Below are positions 406 to 39,942 of a stretch of 64,000 bases of DNA, piece by piece (the stretch's first letter is position 1; each line of letters begins with the position of its first letter). Under the pieces are notes generated by a model. It was not told the origin of the DNA. It was given only the letters and a program-made list of their open reading frames with translations, and did not search any database. This DNA is from a virus. The position numbers and the translations under genes are program-made. Location: IMG/VR virus record IMGVR_UViG_3300014039_000006; one strand, given 5' to 3'.

Positions 406-1245
406 ATGGCAATTAATAAAGTGGAATATAGCGGAAATACATTAATTGACTTGACTTCTGACAGCGTGACACCGGAATCTTTGCTTTCCGGTGTCACTGC
501 GCATGATGCGTCAGGAAATTTGATTACAGGAGAACTTAATCCGCAAAAAATATTTGATAATGCCGGATATCACAACAGTATTTTTCGCGGAAAGAACTTG
601 GGAACGTCTGTCACGGAAGAACAATACGAAGCTATTTCTTCCGGAGAGTTCACAGATTTATTTGTTGGCGATTACTGGACTTTGAATAACGTAGTTTACC
701 GTATCGTCGGCTTTGACCTGTTTTTACATACAGGAGATACAGAACTTACAACGCATCACGTTGTTATTGTTCCTGATAAAAATATGTACAGTCACGCGAT
801 GAACGATACAAATGTGACTACAGGTGGTTATTATAACAGCAAAATGAAACAAAGTGGTCTGACACAGGCTCTGACTACGGTAAAGGCGGCATTTGGTGAA
901 AGTCACATAGTAAAAAGAAGAGTAATTTTGACGAATGCCATAAGTGGAGATAATCCATCCGGATGGGCGTGGTACGATACCTACATTGACCTTATGACAG
1001 AACGGCAGGTATATGGATCTCCTGCATGGGGACAGGCGGCACATAATGGATATGATGCCGGATGTGAGTATTCAAGACTCCCATTGTTTACACTTGCACC
1101 GGAATTTATCACAAATAGAGCATGGTATTGGCTGCGAGATATCCGGTCGTCGTCTGCCTTCGCCGATGTCGGCAGCCTTGGCGGTGCCGACGGCGCCGGC
1201 GCGTCCTACTCCGGCGGGGTTCGCCCGCTTTTTTTAATCTCTTAA
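406..1245 (+). CDS. DGR variable target protein 1 (fibre-associated receptor-binding candidate, CLec/DUF1566- or DUF6273-like C-terminus)
   Basis: 279 aa. N-terminus repeats fibre motifs (SGVTAHDASGNLITGEL). C-terminus WYWLRD..SSSAF..GGVRPLF is encoded by VR1. Confidence 0.9.
   Translation: MAINKVEYSGNTLIDLTSDSVTPESLLSGVTAHDASGNLITGELNPQKIFDNAGYHNSIFRGKNLGTSVTEEQYEAISSGEFTDLFVGDYWTLNNVVYRIVGFDLFLHTGDTELTTHHVVIVPDKNMYSHAMNDTNVTTGGYYNSKMKQSGLTQALTTVKAAFGESHIVKRRVILTNAISGDNPSGWAWYDTYIDLMTERQVYGSPAWGQAAHNGYDAGCEYSRLPLFTLAPEFITNRAWYWLRDIRSSSAFADVGSLGGADGAGASYSGGVRPLFLIS
1142..1226 (+). repeat. DGR variable region VR1
   Basis: Manual alignment to TR 1849-1933: 85 nt, 21 differences, all at TR adenines (21 of 25 A changed), no non-A differences. 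Confidence 0.9.
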
Positions 1246-1247
1246 TC

Positions 1248-1279
1248 GTCAATCGCCGCCCCGTGTGGGCGGAGTTGAC
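1248..1279 (+). promoter_or_regulatory. GC hairpin downstream of VR1 (DGR target-recognition hairpin candidate)
   Basis: GTCAA-tcg-CCGCCC-cgtgt-GGGCGG-ag-TTGAC. The same CGTGT loop follows VR2 and VR3. Confidence 0.7.
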
Positions 1280-1295
1280 GGAGAAAGGAACATAT

Positions 1296-1823
1296 ATGTC
1301 AGAAATACCAAAGTCAAGAAGAAAAGAATCAAAATTAGAAGTAATCCACAAAGCATATAGACTACGTTCAAGAATAACAAATGAGCTAATATGCAGTTTC
1401 GGATATTCTCAAAAGAAATATGAAGCACATTTAAACAAGGCGGTAAGACATATTCGGGATGAAACAGAACGTAAGGAGAAGAAAGAAGTTTTACGCAAAA
1501 TGGAAGAAAACTTTGATTTCTGGATTATTGAAAAAGAAAGAGATGATATCCTGCATTACACAAAAGGGATCGTAAATCATCTTATATCTGCAAACACGAT
1601 ATATCCGGTCAACGTACCGGAATATGAAGAGCGAAGACTGGAAATGGACAGGGCATTAGTGTGTTGCACGTGTCTTCAACAGGAATTGCAGTACATTGCA
1701 GAAGTTCTTCCGTCCGACAAGAATAAATACATGAACATAGTGCTTGAAATTCAAACGATTCGAGAAATGATAAAGGGACTTCGACAATCTGACAACAGAT
1801 TTTTAAGAGATATTAAGAAATAA
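1296..1823 (+). CDS. Avd-like DGR accessory protein (four-helix-bundle type)
   Basis: ATG at 1296 after GAAAGGAA. Basic helical protein with an ..ISAN..Y..R..L..A.. pattern, located between VR and TR. The longer track ORF from 1122 is just read-through of VR1. Confidence 0.6.
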   Translation: MSEIPKSRRKESKLEVIHKAYRLRSRITNELICSFGYSQKKYEAHLNKAVRHIRDETERKEKKEVLRKMEENFDFWIIEKERDDILHYTKGIVNHLISANTIYPVNVPEYEERRLEMDRALVCCTCLQQELQYIAEVLPSDKNKYMNIVLEIQTIREMIKGLRQSDNRFLRDIKK

Positions 1824-1848: not shown

Positions 1849-1933
1849 TCCAGTCGTCGTCTAACTTCGCCAATGTCAACAACAATGGCAATGCCAACAA
1901 CAACGACGCGTCCAACTCCAACGGAGTTCGCCC
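1849..1933 (+). repeat. DGR template repeat (TR)
   Basis: 85 nt with 25 adenines, many in AAC triplets. Non-coding position just upstream of the RT. Matches VR1, VR2 and VR3. Confidence 0.9.
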
Positions 1934-9613: not shown

Positions 9614-9955
9614 GGAGAAGGTGAAGAAATGTACATACCACCGTTTTGGTGCGGAGTGATTGCCACGATCTTATTTGAACTGGCAGTAACAATTATTATG
9701 GCATTTGCCGTAAGGACGAAACCGGAGAAAGGAGAGGAAGACGATGATCGTAACTAATTTTAATGAGATGAGCATTGAAGAACTGGAAGCTATTTGTGAC
9801 ACGCTCCACATGGAATTATCCATTAACGACGGAAAGATCGTAGGGGCAGAGGAATAGCACCTACAACGACCGGAAATCAGAATAGGTGCTATAAAGTGAA
9901 TCAGCTATTGCTTTTTCATGCCCTATTATACCGGAGAAAGGAGAAAAAGTCAAAC

Positions 9956-11196: not shown

Positions 11197-13141
11197 ACAC
11201 GTATTTGCACAGAATTTCTGCAAGTTTACAGGAACAAAAACGATTGATTTTGATTTTTCAGACAAGACGATCGTTTCCGGAGCAAATGAAGCCGGAAAGT
11301 CTACAATTAAGACACTGATTTATTGGATCCTGAATTGCCGTGATGAAAACGGTAAGGAGATTACAGGAATCAGACCGCATGATAAGGACGGCGTGTACAT
11401 GGACAACGTAGAAACGGTTGGAGCGGTTACATTTGACATTGACGGCGAAGAAAAGACCATGAAGAAGGTATTCCGGCAGAATATTAATAAGAAAGGCGAG
11501 TTTACCGGAAACGTCACGGATTATTATGTCAATGATATTCCGAAGAAAGCCACGGATTATGCGGATTTTATTGGCGAACGGATTGTTTCTGACGGTAAAT
11601 TACCGTACTGCATTAATACCATGACTTTACTGCTTAAAAACTCCACAGAACAGCGTGCGTTGTTACATGATACGTTCGGTCAACATACCGATGCGGATAT
11701 CTGCGATATGTTTCCGGAGTTTGAGCCGTTGAAATCTATTCTTTCAGACGGAACAATCGAGGAACTGAAAAAGCGATGTAACACACAGTTGAACGGCACA
11801 AGAGGTAAGAACGGTAGCAAAGGATTGAATGACTTGCTTGACGAAATCCCTAGCCGTATTGATGAGGTCAGCAGACAGAAAGTTGACCTTGACTTTGCGG
11901 AACTTGAACTGCAAAAGAACGGGATCCTTGAAAGAATTGCACAAATTGACAAGTCATTATCAGACAATGAAGAACTTCTTGAAGAGGAAAAGAAGAAATC
12001 GGACGGCATTCTGGAATTGAAATTCAAGATTTCAGAATTGCAGAACGAAGCCAACAGGAAAAACGACAAGAAGCGTGCTGATATCCGGTCACAGATTAGC
12101 CGTTTGGAGAACAACAGAGTGCAGTTGGATTCCGAAATTAAGGATCTTACCTTCAAGGACAAGTATCTTTCCAATTCGATCCTTACAAAAACAGAAGAAC
12201 GAAAGAAACTCGCGGAGAAGTGGAAGGTAGAACATGACCGTGTATTTGACGATTCTACACTGGTTTGTCCTTATTGCGGTCAAGAATACCCAGAAGAGAA
12301 AAAAGGCCAGTTAAAGGCTGAATTTCAACAACACAAGGCCGATGAACTGAAACACATCGAAGAAGAGGGAATGAATCTGAAATCTTACATTGACGATGGC
12401 AATGCAGAGATTTCAAAGATGCATGAATCTATTGAAGAAAAGAACACAGAATTGCAGAAGATTATTGATGAAATTGCAAATTTGAATGCAGAATACAATG
12501 CAATTTCGGCTGTTGTGGATATTTCCGATACGGAAGAGGTAAAGGAAATTCAGAAACAGATTTCAGAAATGGAATCTGCAATGAAGAAAGAAAATTACAT
12601 TGATGATATCAGGGTGAAACACAAAGCGGAAAGAGACCTTGCGAATGCAGAATTAGCAGAGGTTCAGGCTAAAATTGCAAAGTCAGCATTCAATGCACAA
12701 TTAGATGACAGAATCGCAGAACTGGAAGAGGAAAATAGAAATATCGCACAGAAAATTACGGACGTTCAAGCACAACTTGACCTGTTAAAACGGTTTAGTC
12801 GGAAGAAAAATGAACTTCTGGAAGCAGATGTGAACAGTTACTTGAATTTCTGCAAGGTGAAAATGTTCCGTCCTCTTATTAACGGTGACACAGAAGAATG
12901 CTGCGAGTTTATTTACAACGGAGAGCCATACGGACAAAGATTAAACCATGGAGCAAGGATTCTTGTAGAAATTGACATTTGCCGGGCATTTCAGAAGAAA
13001 TATGGAGCAGAGATCCCAATTATCGTTGATGATACAGAGTCCGTTGATGATTGGCGTATTCCGGAGATTGAAAGTCAGCTTATTTTATTGAAAAGAACGG
13101 ATGAAAAGGAATTGTTCGTGAAAGGAGTCACGAATGGGTAA
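11186..13141 (+). CDS. Rad50/SbcC/SMC-like AAA ATPase with long coiled coil
   Basis: N-terminal Walker A SGANEAGKST, a central coiled coil with a CPYCGQ zinc hook-like motif, and C-terminal IIVDDTES (Walker B/D-loop). Confidence 0.8.
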   Translation: MKIKHVFAQNFCKFTGTKTIDFDFSDKTIVSGANEAGKSTIKTLIYWILNCRDENGKEITGIRPHDKDGVYMDNVETVGAVTFDIDGEEKTMKKVFRQNINKKGEFTGNVTDYYVNDIPKKATDYADFIGERIVSDGKLPYCINTMTLLLKNSTEQRALLHDTFGQHTDADICDMFPEFEPLKSILSDGTIEELKKRCNTQLNGTRGKNGSKGLNDLLDEIPSRIDEVSRQKVDLDFAELELQKNGILERIAQIDKSLSDNEELLEEEKKKSDGILELKFKISELQNEANRKNDKKRADIRSQISRLENNRVQLDSEIKDLTFKDKYLSNSILTKTEERKKLAEKWKVEHDRVFDDSTLVCPYCGQEYPEEKKGQLKAEFQQHKADELKHIEEEGMNLKSYIDDGNAEISKMHESIEEKNTELQKIIDEIANLNAEYNAISAVVDISDTEEVKEIQKQISEMESAMKKENYIDDIRVKHKAERDLANAELAEVQAKIAKSAFNAQLDDRIAELEEENRNIAQKITDVQAQLDLLKRFSRKKNELLEADVNSYLNFCKVKMFRPLINGDTEECCEFIYNGEPYGQRLNHGARILVEIDICRAFQKKYGAEIPIIVDDTESVDDWRIPEIESQLILLKRTDEKELFVKGVTNG

Positions 13142-13565
13142 GCCAGTTCAAGAAAGTCGATTTGAATACAAAGGATATCCTTGCGTTGTTTTGTTTCAAC
13201 CTATCGGATTCAGGACTGGATATGTCGGGATTCGTTCTGAAAAGACGATAAAGGCAATAAATATTGAAGAAATTAATTGTCACGGTGGAATTACCTACGC
13301 AAAAAATCATCTGTACGGACAGAAAGATCAAGACATCTTTTGGATCGGTTTTGACTGCGGACATTGTTTTGATGGGTATGATGCTGAAAAAATTAAAGAG
13401 TATTACAAGGACAATGAACGGGTAATGAAGTCGTTTGTAATAATGCAGACATTTTACCGGGAACGAAACAAAGAATTAGAAGTAAGAACTTTGGAATATG
13501 CAGAAGAAGAGTGCAAGAAAATTGTAGAACAGTTGGTTTTACTTGAAAAGGAGGAAGAAAAATGA
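13134..13565 (+). CDS. hypothetical protein
   Basis: 143-aa ORF, overlap-coupled. Confidence 0.5.
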   Translation: MGKPVQESRFEYKGYPCVVLFQPIGFRTGYVGIRSEKTIKAINIEEINCHGGITYAKNHLYGQKDQDIFWIGFDCGHCFDGYDAEKIKEYYKDNERVMKSFVIMQTFYRERNKELEVRTLEYAEEECKKIVEQLVLLEKEEEK

Positions 13566-16623: not shown

Positions 16624-16980
16624 ATGAAGATTATTGAGGGAAAAGAAAAAGAATACAAGGAATGGTACGACAAAAATAGCGATGCTTATAGCAGAGCATG
16701 TTTTACATTCGCAGAAAGATGGGCGGAACTTTTGGAAGAAAAAATAGACAACTCTTCCGATTGCCCGATGAAGGTAATTGTCGATAACGCAGAACAATTA
16801 AGTGACGAAGCAGACACAGAAGGAATCACGGGATTTATGTATGGTTGCGCTGTTAATATTCTCTCGAGAGAATGGGAATACGGCGATGAATTGAGAAGAT
16901 GGCATAACGGAAAATACGATTATCAGGGCGAAGGAACTGTAAATCCGGCTATTCTTACGGTTGGTGGCAAAGATGATTAA
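16624..16980 (+). CDS. hypothetical protein
   Basis: 118-aa ORF. Confidence 0.5.
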   Translation: MKIIEGKEKEYKEWYDKNSDAYSRACFTFAERWAELLEEKIDNSSDCPMKVIVDNAEQLSDEADTEGITGFMYGCAVNILSREWEYGDELRRWHNGKYDYQGEGTVNPAILTVGGKDD

Positions 16981-17677
16981 TCTGAAATGCCTATCTTCCG
17001 GAAGTAAAGGGAACTGCTATCTTCTGGAAGCTGATAACGGAGAAGTGCTTATCATTGATGCCGGAATACCAATCATGGATATTAAGCGTGGTCTGAACTG
17101 GAATGTAAGAAGTGTAGTCGGTGCGGTTGTTACGCACCGGCACACAGACCACAGTAAAAGCATTGATGATTTACGTCACATGGGAATAAGGGTTGTTGCA
17201 CCGTATGAATCCGGAAATGTAAAGTCCATGAGTTTTTCGATGGGAAGTTTCAAGATGCAGGCTTTTGATGTTCCACATAACGGTTGTTGGAATAACGGAT
17301 TTTTGATTAAGACTCCGGACGGACAGAAAATCTTGTATATGACCGATTTGGAGTATTGCCCGTATTCTTTCCGGAAGCAGAGCGTAGACCATATGCTTAT
17401 CGAGTGCAATTACATGAAATCACTGGTTGATACGGACGCTCCGAATTATGTTCACAAGATTCGAGGTCACTGTGAACTGGAAACGACAAAAGGAATCGTC
17501 AAAGAGAACGCAACAAATAGCCTTGTAAACGTTATATTGTGTCATTTGGGGCGTGATACTTGCGAAGAGGACAAAGTTATCGAAGAAGTAAAAAAGATCG
17601 TTCCTAAAGCCAATGTGGACGTTGCAAAAGTCGGTAAGGAATGGATTTTAAGAAAGGGCGGTGAGTGTCCGTTTTGA
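16973..17677 (+). CDS. MBL-fold metallo-hydrolase (candidate recombination nuclease)
   Basis: HRHTDH motif. Sits between RecT and SSB. Confidence 0.75.
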   Translation: MINLKCLSSGSKGNCYLLEADNGEVLIIDAGIPIMDIKRGLNWNVRSVVGAVVTHRHTDHSKSIDDLRHMGIRVVAPYESGNVKSMSFSMGSFKMQAFDVPHNGCWNNGFLIKTPDGQKILYMTDLEYCPYSFRKQSVDHMLIECNYMKSLVDTDAPNYVHKIRGHCELETTKGIVKENATNSLVNVILCHLGRDTCEEDKVIEEVKKIVPKANVDVAKVGKEWILRKGGECPF

Positions 17678-18884: not shown

Positions 18885-19451
18885 ATGAAGGTAAAAAGAA
18901 CAGTAACAATGAAAGTTAGCAATTTTGAGGTTGGCGATCGGATCACCGTAAAACTTTCTGGATATGGGAAGTTTACGGCTACGGCACACGAGATCACAGA
19001 CAAGGGAACACTATTTATCTTTGATGATTGTGTTTGTGAAAGACAAATGAACGAAGAAAATACGAATGAAGGTGGATATTTGGAATCAGACCTTAGAAAG
19101 TTTGTGGCACAGGATCTGTTAAAGGCATTTCCGGATAAACTTTTGGAGAGAATGGCAAAGGACGATAACGGAGATCTACTTTCCATTCCGACCTACGGAC
19201 AGGTTTTGGGTAAAGACTGGGACGATGAGTGGGATGAGAAAAACATTGAGATCGACAAGAGAGAACAATTGCCACTGATGCAGAAAAGAAAGAACCGGAT
19301 TGCAGATTTACAAAACGAATGGACATGGTACTGGTTGCAAAATAAAGTCCTGTCGTCGTCTGCCTTCGCCGGTGTCGGCGGCGATGGCTATGCCGGCTAC
19401 GCCGGCGCGTCCGACTCCGGCGGGGTTCGCCCAGCTTTCCTAATCAAGTAA
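18885..19451 (+). CDS. DGR variable target protein 2 (remote)
   Basis: Paralog of 25030-25599. C-terminus WYWLQNKVLSSSAFAGV..GGVRPAFLIK is encoded by VR2. No signal peptide. Confidence 0.85.
   Translation: MKVKRTVTMKVSNFEVGDRITVKLSGYGKFTATAHEITDKGTLFIFDDCVCERQMNEENTNEGGYLESDLRKFVAQDLLKAFPDKLLERMAKDDNGDLLSIPTYGQVLGKDWDDEWDEKNIEIDKREQLPLMQKRKNRIADLQNEWTWYWLQNKVLSSSAFAGVGGDGYAGYAGASDSGGVRPAFLIK
19348..19432 (+). repeat. DGR variable region VR2
   Basis: 85 nt aligned to TR: 21 differences, all at TR adenines. Confidence 0.85.
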
Positions 19452-19459
19452 TCATTAAT

Positions 19460-19480
19460 CCACGCCCCGTGTGGGCGTGG
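19460..19480 (+). promoter_or_regulatory. GC hairpin downstream of VR2
   Basis: CCACGCCC-cgtgt-GGGCGTGG, 28 nt after VR2. Confidence 0.7.
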
Positions 19481-19511
19481 AAATGGAAGTAAATTAAAGG
19501 AGTGACAAGAA

Positions 19512-25029: not shown

Positions 25030-25599
25030 ATGAAAGCATGGAGAAAAGTAAAAATGGAGATCAAAAACTATGAGGTCGGAGATCAGATCGCGGTGAAACT
25101 CAAAGGCTTCGGAAAATTTACTGCAACGGCACAGAGAGTTTATGACGATGGAAAAACGCTGTTTCTTTTCGATAACTGCGTTGCAGAACGGCAGATGAAC
25201 GAAAACGGTTCAAATTCCGGAGGTTTTTATGAATCCGACTTATGCAAGTGGATGAATACAGAATTGGTGAAAACTTTTCCCACTAAACTTCTTGACCGCA
25301 TGATTTATACGAACGAAGAACATGAATGCCTGCTTCGAATTCCGACAAGAAAGGAAATGTTCGGAGAAGATGAATATAGTCAATATTACGAACCGGATAA
25401 CGAGGAACAATTTGAACTTATGAAAGACAGAAAAAACCGTGTTTGTTCTCTTCCTGATGATGAATATGCATGGTATTGGTTGATGAATGCGCATCTCCGG
25501 TCGTCGTCTTACTTCGCCCCTGTCAGCGCCAGTGGCCGTGCCAACGGCTTCGGCGCGTCCAGCTCTGGCGGGGTTCGCCCGGCTTTCCTAATCAAGTAA
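25030..25599 (+). CDS. DGR variable target protein 3 (remote)
   Basis: Paralog of 18885-19451. C-terminus WYWLMNAHLRSSSYFAPV..GGVRPAFLIK is encoded by VR3. Confidence 0.85.
   Translation: MKAWRKVKMEIKNYEVGDQIAVKLKGFGKFTATAQRVYDDGKTLFLFDNCVAERQMNENGSNSGGFYESDLCKWMNTELVKTFPTKLLDRMIYTNEEHECLLRIPTRKEMFGEDEYSQYYEPDNEEQFELMKDRKNRVCSLPDDEYAWYWLMNAHLRSSSYFAPVSASGRANGFGASSSGGVRPAFLIK
25496..25580 (+). repeat. DGR variable region VR3
   Basis: 85 nt aligned to TR: 19 differences at TR adenines plus one C-to-T at TR position 71. Confidence 0.85.
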
Positions 25600-25607
25600 T
25601 CATTAAT

Positions 25608-25628
25608 CCACGCCCCGTGTGGGCGTGG
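25608..25628 (+). promoter_or_regulatory. GC hairpin downstream of VR3
   Basis: CCACGCCC-cgtgt-GGGCGTGG. The roughly 58 bp after the VR are identical to the VR2 flank. Confidence 0.7.
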
Positions 25629-25665
25629 AAATGGAAGTGAAATTAAAATTTCGGAGGTAAAGTAG

Positions 25666-26253
25666 ATGGCACAATATAGAACAAAATCATGTGAAATTGA
25701 AGCAATTCAATGGACTGATAATACAAATGAAATAAAATCATTTTGTGGAAATAGTTGCACATATTCCGTAGAAGAACAGTGCATGGGAAGTTGGAAAGGC
25801 ATTCCGATCGAGAGATTGATTATTCACACATTGGAAGGAGATATGGTTGCAAGCAGAAACGACTACATCATAAAAGGATTGAAAGGTGAATTTTATCCAT
25901 GCAAGCCAGATGTATTTAACCAAAAGTATAAATTAATAAATGATACTATGGAAATACAAGAAGAGCAGAGATGGATACCGGTAACTGAAAGGTTGCCAGA
26001 AGAACTTACACCAGTAAATATTACGTGGATAAATAGAAATCCTGAACAATATTATGCGGATATAAAGGATGTTCCTTTTTCCACTACAGGAGTTTTTCAT
26101 CGCGGAAAGTGGTATTGGTGGTCTACGGTAGTTGTTGATTATCTTTCAGAATATGGAAGATATGACATGGATTTGGTAGATAAAGATATTGAAATTATAG
26201 CATGGCAACCGTTGCCGGAGCCGTACAAAGGAGAAAATAACCACAATATGTAG
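25666..26253 (+). CDS. protein with C-terminal DUF551-like domain
   Basis: RWIPVTERLPEEL...IIAWQPLPEPY. Confidence 0.6.
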   Translation: MAQYRTKSCEIEAIQWTDNTNEIKSFCGNSCTYSVEEQCMGSWKGIPIERLIIHTLEGDMVASRNDYIIKGLKGEFYPCKPDVFNQKYKLINDTMEIQEEQRWIPVTERLPEELTPVNITWINRNPEQYYADIKDVPFSTTGVFHRGKWYWWSTVVVDYLSEYGRYDMDLVDKDIEIIAWQPLPEPYKGENNHNM

Positions 26254-26279
26254 CAATCCCGGATTACAAGATATTGTAT
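26238..26279 (+). repeat. 42-bp direct repeat, copy A
   Basis: taaccacaatatGtagcaatcccggatTAcaagatattgtat. 39/42 identical to 37271-37312. Has internal dyad symmetry (acaatat..atcc c ggat..atattgt). Confidence 0.8.
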
Positions 26280-28179: not shown

Positions 28180-29544
28180 ATGAATTGTGTCGCATATATG
28201 CGTGTTTCAACGGAGAAACAAGCAGAAGAAGGAAATGGATTGGATAGTCAAAAACGGGATATCGAAATATATTGTCGCAAAAATGAGTTGATTATATCCG
28301 ATTGGTATATTGATGACGGATATACAGGAGCGAATACCGATAGACCGGCTTTGCAAAGGCTGATTACGGATTGTTCAAAACACAGGATAAAATGCATAGT
28401 TGCTTTTAAACTGGACAGGCTTTCACGTAGCATGGTTGATGGAATATACTTGATAGAGAGAGTTTTCATGCCAAATCAAGTAGAATTTAAGTGCGTGCAT
28501 GACAGTGTAAGCTATGATAGTCCTATGGAACAAGCATACACACAAATGATGGCTGTATTTGCACAACTTGATAAAAACACGATGCTGTTGAGAATGCGCG
28601 GAGGAATGCTTGAAAGAGTAAAAAAAGGATATTGGATGGGCGGTGGAAATACACCTTATTGTTACCGATATGATACTGAATCCGGTACACTGATTCCGAT
28701 ACCTGAAAGAGCAGAACAGGCAAGGCAAGCGTTAGAAATGTTCATAAACGGATATTCTGATGAACAAATAATGAAAATGTTTGGATATAAAAGCGAATTT
28801 GTTGTCAGAAGAATACTTACCGGAGTTGTAAACATTGGGATGATACCGTACAAAGGAGAGGTTTTTCAAGGACTTCACGAACCTATCTTTGATAAAAGCC
28901 GGTTTGAACTTGCACAGGAAATAAGAAAGTCCAGAAGAATAACAAGGACAAAATGCTTTGACCGAGAAACAAATTTGCTTACTGGATTATGTTATTGTGG
29001 CGTGTGCGGTTGCAAAATGAGATACCAGAAATGGACTCATGGAAAGCACAGGATTTATTGCTGTTCCAGAAACAAGGATTTAAACTATCTTCCGAACTGG
29101 TCTGAAAATTGCGATAATTCTCTTGTGTGGGCGATTGATATTGAGAAGCAAGTTGAAAAAGAGATACTGAAAATATCCGTTAATCTTTCAAAAAGCAAGC
29201 CAAAAGAGAAGAAAAGTAAACTTGAAATCATGGAATCACAGCTTGATAAAGAGAAAGTAAAGTTAAAAAGGCTTTATTCTTTATACGCAGACGGAAACGA
29301 CACCGTTCTTGACATGATTAAAGACCTAGAACTGAAAATTGATGGGATGAAGATGAAAATAACAGAAGAAGCCAAAAGTCCGTTGAATACACAGAAGAAA
29401 GAGTTTGTTTATGAAAATATAAAAAACCTTGCCGATATGTGGGGTCACATTGACAAGGCTAAGAAAAACTCTATATTAAAAAGCATAATATCTAAAATTG
29501 TAATTGTCAATGATGATATTGAAATACAATTAAAAAACTTTTAG
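28180..29544 (+). CDS. large serine recombinase (integrase)
   Basis: AYMRVSTEKQ catalytic-Ser motif, a recombinase domain, a Cys-rich zinc ribbon (CYCGVCGC...YCCS) and a coiled-coil C-terminus. Confidence 0.9.
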   Translation: MNCVAYMRVSTEKQAEEGNGLDSQKRDIEIYCRKNELIISDWYIDDGYTGANTDRPALQRLITDCSKHRIKCIVAFKLDRLSRSMVDGIYLIERVFMPNQVEFKCVHDSVSYDSPMEQAYTQMMAVFAQLDKNTMLLRMRGGMLERVKKGYWMGGGNTPYCYRYDTESGTLIPIPERAEQARQALEMFINGYSDEQIMKMFGYKSEFVVRRILTGVVNIGMIPYKGEVFQGLHEPIFDKSRFELAQEIRKSRRITRTKCFDRETNLLTGLCYCGVCGCKMRYQKWTHGKHRIYCCSRNKDLNYLPNWSENCDNSLVWAIDIEKQVEKEILKISVNLSKSKPKEKKSKLEIMESQLDKEKVKLKRLYSLYADGNDTVLDMIKDLELKIDGMKMKITEEAKSPLNTQKKEFVYENIKNLADMWGHIDKAKKNSILKSIISKIVIVNDDIEIQLKNF

Positions 29545-34357: not shown

Positions 34358-34392
34358 TGGGGCGGTTTAATCCGCTCCTTTTCTTTTTTTTA
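34358..34392 (+). terminator. rho-independent terminator
   Basis: GGGGCGG-tttaat-CCGCTCC followed by a T-run. Confidence 0.7.
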
Positions 34393-34401
34393 AATTTGTG
34401 C

Positions 34402-34443
34402 TTGACTTTTTGTAGCGACAGTATTATATTTACTGTAGCGACA
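34402..34443 (+). promoter_or_regulatory. promoter with duplicated operator
   Basis: TTGACT-17 nt-TATATT. TGTAGCGACA occurs at 34411 and 34434. Confidence 0.6.
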
Positions 34444-34464
34444 AAAAAGAAATGAGGTGAGAAG

Positions 34465-34644
34465 GTGTCGCCAGAAAGAGGAAGACCAAAATTAGACAAT
34501 AAAAAAGACACTATGCTTAGAGTTCGTATTGATGATGATGTAGTTAAGAAATTGGAAATCGCTTCAAATAACTTGAACATAACGAAGTCTGATGTTGTTA
34601 GAAATGGTATAGAAAGTGAATACCAAAGGTCATTAAAAAAATAA
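34465..34644 (+). CDS. ribbon-helix-helix (CopG/Arc-like) small regulator
   Basis: GTG start after GAGGTGAG. ..DTMLRVRIDDDVVKKLEIASNNLNITKSDVVRNGI.. Not in the ORF track. Confidence 0.45.
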   Translation: MSPERGRPKLDNKKDTMLRVRIDDDVVKKLEIASNNLNITKSDVVRNGIESEYQRSLKK

Positions 34645-35019: not shown

Positions 35020-35157
35020 ATGAAAAATTCTTACACAATGGTTACCATTCCACAAGAAAGATACGATCGCATGGTGGAATCCTACGACAAGGCACTGAAA
35101 GAACTGGAAGAACTTCGGAAGGAGTTGGAACAGTTCAAGAAGGGCGGTGCTTGCTGA
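35020..35157 (+). CDS. hypothetical small coiled-coil protein
   Basis: 45 aa with an AGGAGG RBS. Not in the ORF track. Confidence 0.4.
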   Translation: MKNSYTMVTIPQERYDRMVESYDKALKELEELRKELEQFKKGGAC

Positions 35158-35846
35158 TGAATGAACTTGTAAACATTGAGGGAACGGATTTAAGAATTCG
35201 CGAGTGGAACGGTCAAAGAGTGGTTACGTTTAATGATATTGATGAAGTTCACGGAAAAAGGCCAGGAACTTCGAGAAGAAACTTCAACAGATATAAGCAA
35301 TATTTTGTTCAAGGTGAAGATTTCTTTTCTCTGACAAGAGAATGTTCTAATGAGACAAATTGTCCCAATAGAAACATTAAAATACCAAACAAAGGTATTG
35401 TGGTGTTGACAGAAAGCGGTTATTTGATGATAACAAAGACTTTCAATGATGAACTTTCTTGGAAAGTACAACGATCTTTGGTCGAAGTTTATTTTCATTG
35501 CAAGGGATTACAGGAAGAAGTTGATCCAGAAACCGATGATGCGGACATTGACTTGATCGAGGAAAAACCGCAAGTGCCACTTATCAAAGGGTGGCACAAC
35601 CGGAACAAGGGCAGACTTGCAAGGATTCAGAGCCGTACCGGACTCACATTGACAAGGATTTACCATTGCATCCTTAAGAATGTCGGCGAAAAATACGACC
35701 TCAAGGAAGCAAACAATATGTACAAGAAATGCACCGGAAAAGAACCGGAATACGCAATGGACATTGTAGAATACTTTCCGGAACTTGCGGAAGCTGCCGA
35801 CAGGTATCTGGACGGCGTAGAACGAGCATTGAACGCAAGGAGGTAG
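35157..35846 (+). CDS. ORF6N/antirepressor-like DNA-binding protein
   Basis: LRIREWNGQRVVTFNDIDEVHGKRPGTSRRNFNRYKQYFVQGEDFF fits the ORF6N pattern. Confidence 0.65.
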   Translation: MNELVNIEGTDLRIREWNGQRVVTFNDIDEVHGKRPGTSRRNFNRYKQYFVQGEDFFSLTRECSNETNCPNRNIKIPNKGIVVLTESGYLMITKTFNDELSWKVQRSLVEVYFHCKGLQEEVDPETDDADIDLIEEKPQVPLIKGWHNRNKGRLARIQSRTGLTLTRIYHCILKNVGEKYDLKEANNMYKKCTGKEPEYAMDIVEYFPELAEAADRYLDGVERALNARR

Positions 35847-37270: not shown

Positions 37271-37312
37271 TAACCACAATATATAGCAATCCCGGATCGC
37301 AAGATATTGTAT
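37271..37312 (+). repeat. 42-bp direct repeat, copy B
   Basis: 39/42 identical to 26238-26279. Confidence 0.8.
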
Positions 37313-39799: not shown

Positions 39800-39824
39800 A
39801 ACACTACTGATATACCTAAACAAT

Positions 39825-39942
39825 CTCAACGTAAATAAAGCCAATAAACTATCGTTTAGTCAATACATTGTTTTTATAACACTCTCAACGTAGATACTAC
39901 CAATAACTTACCGTGTAGCCAATAACTTATATTTATAACACT
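39825..39942 (+). repeat. 59-bp imperfect tandem direct repeat x2 (iteron-like)
   Basis: CTCAACGTA at 39825 and 39884, CCAATAA at 39841 and 39900, TTATAACACT at 39874 and 39933. All are offset by 59 bp. Confidence 0.65.

Follow-up and report, generated by a model that had tools for sequence, protein, structure and literature searches.

A small DUF6273 gene of the early region as a probable remote target of the DGR of a temperate phage

The window analysed here, which is the whole stretch of 64,000 nucleotides of the IMG/VR virus record IMGVR_UViG_3300014039_000006, is the circularly permuted genome, about 66 kb in size, of a temperate phage, and it carries a single DGR whose template repeat (TR) very probably serves, besides a target next to it, a live remote one. 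This remote variable repeat, VR2, is located in an intact gene for 188 aa, at its 3′ end and 17.5 kb from the TR, and the encoded protein would be a small binder of the DUF6273 family. Judged by its differences from the TR, VR2 can be regarded as a genuine DGR variable region, and both coordinates and neighbours confirm what a preliminary description of this DNA had claimed, namely that it sits far from the TR in a small gene of the early/replication module. A third variable repeat, VR3, and a hairpin common to VR2 and VR3 are additions to that description. All features are collected in Table 1.

Table 1. Features of the DGR, its three targets and the nearby anti-defence gene (positions are those of the window)
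Feature	Position	Strand	Evidence
VR1 target gene, 279 aa, end of the tail module	406-1245
VR1, canonical adjacent target	1142..1226	+	21/21 mismatches at A
Post-VR1 hairpin, shorter stem, related	1247-1280		z = -3.9
Avd-like accessory gene	1296..1823	+	phrog_3206 'Avd protein of DGR', E = 2.8e-5 (weak)
TR, A-rich, non-coding, between Avd and RT	1849..1933	+	repeat search; invariant in 8/8 loci
DGR reverse transcriptase (RT), 438 aa	1976..3292	+	RVT_1 E = 1.6e-12; phrog_1423 E = 1e-51
Tad4, inhibitor of type I Thoeris, 1.9 kb on the 5′ side of the VR2 gene	16624-16980		PF25186, E = 7e-34
VR2 target gene, 188-aa single-domain DUF6273 protein	18885..19451	+	PF19789, phrog_21980, AF2 model, Foldseek
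VR2 variable repeat	19348..19432	+	21/21 TR mismatches at TR adenines; P = 2.9e-16
IMH-like GC-rich 3′ end of VR2, GGCGGGGTTCGCCC	19419..19432	+	identical in VR1, VR2, VR3
Post-VR2 hairpin, 9-bp stem, 5-nt loop CGTGT	19459..19481	+	DNA fold -13.1 kcal/mol, z = -5.1
VR3 target gene, 189-aa DUF6273 paralogue	25030..25599	+	PF19789 E = 2.4e-12, 47.5 bits
VR3 variable repeat, at 23.6 kb from the TR	25496..25580	+	19/20 mismatches at A
Post-VR3 hairpin, identical to the post-VR2 hairpin	25607..25629	+	z = -4.6

A repeat search of the window returned four copies of one sequence of roughly 90 nt, of which the A-rich one (1847-1938) is the TR and the three adenine-poor ones, at about 1140, 19346 and 25494, are VR1, VR2 and VR3, all in the same codon register. 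The relation between TR and VR2 is demonstrated by an alignment of 85 nt that, as already described, runs without gaps between 19348-19432 and 1849-1933. The TR has 25 adenines over this length, and the 21 mismatches, which had been said to fall exclusively at adenines, do so in every case (hypergeometric P = 2.9e-16), 16 of them being changes to G, three to T and two to C. Differences confined to TR adenines are those sought in a DGR pair. The pattern of VR2 is indeed unlike that of VR1, from which it departs at 11 positions, and it departs from VR3 at 20. Only 4.7% of VR2 is adenine and its GC content is 74%, against 36% and 41%, respectively, for the remainder of the gene. Across all three 85-nt VRs, the sole mismatch to the TR at a base other than adenine is found in VR3 at position 25566 of the window (TR position 1919), where the TR has C and VR3 has T.

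An RT and an Avd gene, the latter weakly matched, stand beside the TR in the same genome, as looked for in a DGR. The RT carries the motifs IGNQLAQ (residue 256), a variant of [ILV]GxxxSQ with A replacing S, and YTDD (residue 288). There is one Avd-TR-RT cassette for the three targets VR1, VR2 and VR3. According to PHROG and Pfam scans, the window begins with tail genes up to the VR1 target, followed by Avd-TR-RT, XkdX, holin and endolysin, and continues with a repressor, an antirepressor, an SbcC-like protein, RecT, Tad4, an MBL-fold protein, SSB, an HTH protein and the VR2 gene. On the 3′ side of the latter come DUF551 proteins, a methylase, a DnaD-like loader, the VR3 gene and more DUF551 proteins, and the window ends with a large serine integrase (28180-29544) and then the terminase, portal, capsid and tape-measure genes. 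The VR2 gene, placed between the HTH/SSB block and the methylase/DnaD block, therefore does lie among replication and DUF551 genes, as had been noted. Both VR2 and VR3 genes belong to the early/replication block, tightly packed and on the same strand as their neighbours, and the VR2 gene is probably expressed early. Scans for promoters and terminators performed at chance level. Moreover, a 42-nt direct repeat (26238-26279 and 37271-37312, 93% identical, 11 kb apart) flanks the serine integrase and could represent recombination or regulatory sites, and two tandem units of 59 nt, 76% identical and apparently non-coding, occur at 39819-39936, upstream of the packaging genes. When close relatives were used to scan genomes, no prophage came up; broader relatives point to Lachnospiraceae and Oscillospiraceae.

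The three VRs also share putative elements for target recognition. All of them end in GGCGGGGTTCGCCC, the TR counterpart of which is AACGGAGTTCGCCC, and homology to the TR stops just past the GC-rich end of VR2. About 27 nt beyond each GC-rich motif there is a stable hairpin, which after VR2 and VR3 reads TCCACGCCC-CGTGT-GGGCGTGGA (-13.1 kcal/mol), and the equivalent stretch 3′ of the TR shows no fold (z = 0). Homing of the cDNA is directed, in the Bordetella phage BPP-1, by an IMH together with a hairpin or cruciform downstream of it, both found at the VR and lacking at the TR. As far as can be read from the DNA, VR2 would have the same arrangement, an IMH-like end and a downstream hairpin that are missing from the TR, and by analogy the post-VR2 hairpin is probably an element of the DGR target-recognition type. 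An intrinsic terminator can be ruled out, because no T-run follows the hairpin on its 3′ side. Dozens of related contigs, and Lachnospiraceae assemblies as well, have after their VRs a hairpin with a C(G/T)TGT loop and a differing stem. The pattern scan of metagenomes also caught an unrelated DGR family (TR in L017, L026 and L051; VR in L021, L035 and L046), with a TR beginning TTCCGCTGCCAATTTCGCCAATGTCAACAACAACGG and a post-VR hairpin CACCACCCC-cttgt-GGGGTGGTG that has the same loop as the one of this phage and a different stem.

The VR2 gene starts with an ATG placed after GGAGGA. Its extent and its length of about 188 aa agree with the preliminary description, and so does the lack of a signal peptide, since no hydrophobic segment exists in the protein (Kyte-Doolittle, maximum 15-residue mean of 0.76). 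A score of 37.0 bits, over a gathering threshold of 23.5 bits, places the protein in the Pfam family DUF6273 (PF19789), and it matches phrog_21980 with E = 3e-57. The entire 188 aa correspond to one DUF6273 domain, and no recognisable virion-docking domain was found by Pfam, in the AF2 model or by Foldseek. A first AF2 model, built from close homologues only, had a pLDDT below 50 over the VR and gave meaningless fold matches; it was superseded by a high-confidence model obtained with a deeper MSA (pLDDT 95.3), in which the VR falls on strands 160-164 and 170-174. Foldseek searches with this model retrieved the DUF6273 N-terminal domain of the IgA peptidase 9qa6 (E = 2.6e-4), together with 22 viral DUF6273-type models. 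A profile search of the PDB sequences gave nothing significant; in a phage collection, megablast of the VR2 region gave no match and the sole match by tblastn was the phage Fontainebleau. The C-type lectin fold is the one found in Mtd and TvpA, and the suggestion that a fold of this kind exposes the VR residues finds support, at the level of prediction, in both the DUF6273 membership and the high-confidence model. The VR2 protein would then be a cytoplasmic-type, single-domain DUF6273 protein with a predicted C-type-lectin-like fold. The VR3 protein is 54% identical to it, and the VR3 gene lies 6 kb downstream.

The preliminary description started from the premise that phage DGR targets adjoin the RT within the structural module, which is outdated: remote, non-structural targets of phage DGRs have already been published (Benler 2021; Egorov 2024; Gulyaeva 2024), and VR2 is a further case. 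In the Quimbyviridae, ORF84 is a second DGR target that lies away from the structural module, with methyltransferases and a nuclease around it, and was proposed to be non-structural in contrast with the structural targets (Benler 2021, PMC8008677). The position of that second target and the idea of a non-structural role, also put forward in the preliminary description, are thus alike, whereas the Quimbyviridae are phages of Bacteroidetes whose target gene is unrelated and lies on the opposite strand, and the phage described here has as targets DUF6273 paralogues on the strand of the early genes. A closer arrangement is that of FP_Toutatis, which carries a second VR inside a core DUF6273 gene, at a distance of 17,480 nt from the TR (Egorov 2024, bioRxiv 10.1101/2024.10.15.618418), and 'large and small' DUF6273 targets were reported for Lelie and CP11, with the phage Shimadzu also cited (Gulyaeva 2024, PMC11792537). 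We find gp24 of FP_Toutatis (11505-12152) to be an early-region gene; it matches the TR located at about 49077, from which its core differs at A sites. Like the present phage, FP_Toutatis and Lelie combine one Avd-TR-RT cassette at the tail end with a second VR in a distant small DUF6273 gene. However, FP_Toutatis belongs to another genus and is myovirus-like, with about 54 kb, its protein can be aligned with ours only around the VR, which is internal there and at the extreme C-terminus here, and it has one remote target instead of two paralogues.

The Acutalibacter phage Fontainebleau (ON453893, locus L076) has the RT nearest to ours, at 56% identity, and also the nearest small target, at 45%; its homologue of the VR2 protein is WAK78934.1. 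This genome has a TR at 35106-35200, a local VR at the tail end (34391-34485) and a remote VR at 9801-9899, within a 189-aa gene located between the DNA polymerase I and helicase genes; 17 of the 19 mismatches of the remote VR are at adenines, and a hairpin follows it. In contrast with the window, the Fontainebleau genome has 39 kb and one remote target. The paper on this OMM12 prophage makes no mention of a DGR (PMC10197239), so the Fontainebleau DGR appears to be undescribed in its source paper. Gut phage DGRs with tentaclins, in which one TR serves two DUF6273/C-lec-like targets, were described by Baykov et al. (2023; PMC10743442), and the small target is there, as here, one globular domain in which a β-hairpin bears the VR; those targets are described within the DGR cassette, whereas two of the three are remote in our phage. 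Small DUF6273 genes, often paired 2-3 kb apart, were moreover found in assemblies of Lachnospiraceae and other Clostridia (L078-L108), with adenine-depleted, VR-like 3′ ends and a CCGCCC-cttgt-GGGCGG hairpin, and with an RT within 10 kb in L101 only; pairs of this sort are common in the Lachnospiraceae assemblies. In one of these, from Cuneatibacter (L081), small DUF6273 genes are interleaved with three phrog_2152 genes in a neighbourhood of uninformative PHROGs. In another (L088), the small DUF6273 gene that ends at 13440 has a near-undiversified VR (NFANVNNNGNTNYNNASNSNGVRP, 28% adenine) and keeps the hairpin, and this target may be freshly reset or never mutated.

What the VR2 protein does is a question on which the evidence divides. 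We give an even chance to the protein acting inside infected cells or outside the virion and not as a tail component, a guess based on the operon-like packing of its gene with those for SSB, the HTH protein, the methylase and the helicase loader, as well as on a slower turnover than that of VR1 (see below). The early-module position in three lineages and the absence of a docking domain and a signal peptide also argue for a non-virion early role. Moreover, neither a location in the tail module nor an N-terminal fibre-attachment region, as in an Mtd-like tail fibre, was found for the VR2 gene. A different role, which we consider a considerable possibility, is that of virion-associated or extracellular adhesins, such as decoration proteins or accessory receptor-binding proteins, whose genes happen to lie apart from the structural module. 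Elsewhere, DUF6273 domains are mostly found in phage proteins of the tail-fibre, RBP or 'tentaclin' type or in secreted bacterial proteins, a habitat that argues for an extracellular role; the tail-end target VR1 uses the same TR, and receptor binding is the function favoured by the published authors for such targets. T4 hoc and soc are virion proteins encoded outside the structural module. The adhesin role is in turn weakened by a protein in which the single DUF6273 domain leaves no recognised part for docking to the virion, by the early-operon packing in three phage lineages and by an allele turnover far lower than that of VR1. Among the profile matches of the family there are three very long proteins (P0121, 3973 aa; P0155, 3404 aa; P0237, 2439 aa) with 6-12 tandem DUF6273 domains, presumably bacterial surface proteins.

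A more specific version of the non-virion role, which we deem unlikely, is that the small early DUF6273 proteins are cytoplasmic binders, expressed early and retuned by the DGR against variable intracellular targets of the host, such as defence proteins. If true, the phage would have an antibody-like counter-defence repertoire with a mutagenic template in common with its tail receptor-binding protein. PADLOC gave no match to known defence or anti-defence families for either the VR2 or the VR3 protein. The only anti-defence gene nearby is Tad4, and no association of Tad4 with a VR2-type gene was seen in Fontainebleau or Toutatis. The MBL-fold ORF adjacent to Tad4 (16961-17677) finds no support as an Apyc1, with 12 bits against a cut-off of 50.

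Whether VR2 is in use was examined through its natural variation among assembled contigs and the proteins of relatives. In 46 natural relatives of 188 aa (76-93% identity), the positions encoded by AAC/AAT codons in the TR show an entropy of 2.3-3.1 bits with 8-12 residue types and the GAC codon appears as G, D, A or V, with about 0 bits at the interleaved adenine-free codons. Some pairs of proteins differ at just 1-2 of 174 scaffold positions, yet at 9-11 of the 14 VR positions. A sister haplotype (K5, H13, T75, V88, V91), which falls in the same 90% cluster as the window protein, has eight full-length members with one scaffold and a distinct VR2 in each (8/8). In that cluster, the protein P0272 keeps exactly the scaffold of the window, and its eight changes are all inside the VR; the corresponding DNA, contig L113 of sample ERZ808288, has a low coverage (2.2x) and shows 13 differences from the window over 816 nt, comprising 11 at TR-A sites within VR2 and two at non-A sites. 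A-restricted polymorphism of VR2, the lack of which would have counted against it according to the preliminary description, is therefore present in close relatives, and VR2 stands as a DGR target.

Comparisons within the haplotype of the window offer a view of the three targets at a shorter range. The TR is identical in 8/8 loci from other samples with an identical RT, and in four other samples VR1 departs, every time exclusively at A sites, from that of the window. The ENA contig ERZ27300203:k119_168589 (66,074 bp) is identical to the window over 23.7 kb, and a second genome of the same length, from ERZ27300201, differs from it, over the 35.8 kb compared, only in VR1 (8 nt) and VR3 (16 nt), with VR2 unchanged. 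Of the sites rewritten in VR3, 15/16 are TR adenines, and the sixteenth is position 25566, where ERZ27300201 has the TR base back in place of the lone non-A mismatch of the window, consistent with a new cDNA overwriting VR3. Since these isogenic genomes differ in VR1 and VR3 only, remote retrohoming must be recent in the lineage. Natural diversification at A sites is thus found at VR2, VR3 and VR1. In the L003/L004 lineage, both remote VRs carry the same non-A differences from the TR of the window (GCT, GCG, TCT, GTCC), which would be as expected from concerted rewriting by the TR of their own lineage; pattern scans of IMG/VR and JGI returned many VR copies and no TR from related lineages.

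The constancy of VR2 within this haplotype raises the idea that VR2 is a relic, templated by the TR in the past but now fixed and outside retrohoming in this phage. VR2 is the same in the window and in all eight other VR2-bearing loci of the haplotype (8/8, each from another sample and retrieved via an exactly conserved neighbouring gene), it does not change between the isogenic genomes that differ at VR1 and VR3, and some related lineages retain one VR2 allele despite a drift of 6-10 residues in the scaffold. We regard a relic as very improbable: the IMH-like end and the hairpin of VR2 are intact and identical to those of the very recently rewritten VR3, there is zero non-A decay across its 85 nt, and the diversity of the sister haplotype, the close-lineage variant L113 and the rewriting of VR3 in the isogenic pair led us to reject this reading. 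Exact alleles were counted on 12 contigs for VR2, 16 for VR3 and two for VR1. Because VR2 is unchanged in the genome pair, shared throughout the haplotype and present as one allele on 12 contigs against two for VR1, allele turnover is well above that of VR3 in VR1, and in VR3 it is at or above that of VR2. The slow turnover of the remote targets may reflect either less efficient homing or selection keeping good alleles. On these sequence comparisons, VR2 seems to be a live, naturally diversifying target, either one with rare changes or one kept in place by selection. Gene conversion or plain paralogy among DUF6273 genes, with no retroelement involved, has in its favour that the genes carrying VR2 and VR3 are paralogues whose 3′ flanks are nearly identical, but it is effectively refuted by differences that are all directional and confined to TR adenines and next to inconceivable in view of a non-coding, A-rich and invariant fourth copy between Avd and RT and of isogenic genomes that differ only inside the VRs.

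In the mechanism that we propose for this live remote target, whose enzymology is taken by analogy from the Bordetella phage BPP-1, an RT/Avd complex would copy the TR RNA into cDNA with random bases opposite adenines, and the cDNA would then take the place of the VR through homing, with the IMH-like end and the hairpin on the 3′ side of each VR acting as guides. One TR would in this way feed VR1, in the tail-end protein, as well as VR2 and VR3, in paralogous small proteins encoded 17.5 and 23.6 kb off. About 14 codons of the VR2 protein would be randomised, corresponding to a β-hairpin (residues about 160-174) and its flanks, and the protein may be a small soluble binder of programmable specificity, as its single-domain DUF6273 (C-type-lectin-like) scaffold suggests. 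The likeness with the Mtd DGR of BPP-1 would extend to adenine-specific mutagenic homing from TR to VR, to an IMH and a hairpin or cruciform at the VR only, and to a VR at the C-terminus of a protein with a C-type lectin fold, which for the VR2 protein is predicted. The BPP-1 system differs in having one target, adjacent to the cassette, that is a trimeric tail-fibre tip protein, whereas VR2 belongs to a single-domain protein of 188 aa that is encoded in the early module, at a distance of 17.5 kb.

Altogether, the phage described here offers a well-documented case of a DGR writing to non-tail genes located tens of kilobases off, and the comparison that supports it includes two natural genomes that, over 35.8 kb, differ only within two VRs. 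Small DUF6273 targets are located in early/replication modules in at least three phage lineages. Surveys confined to the neighbourhood of the RT miss remote targets, which the approach of the large survey of Roux et al. could not detect (PMC8144416). Fontainebleau, which comes from a cultured strain of the mouse gut, provides an experimental system. Knowledge of the binding partner of an early, hypervariable protein with a predicted lectin fold and no signal peptide would extend the accepted role of phage DGRs beyond tropism for host receptors.
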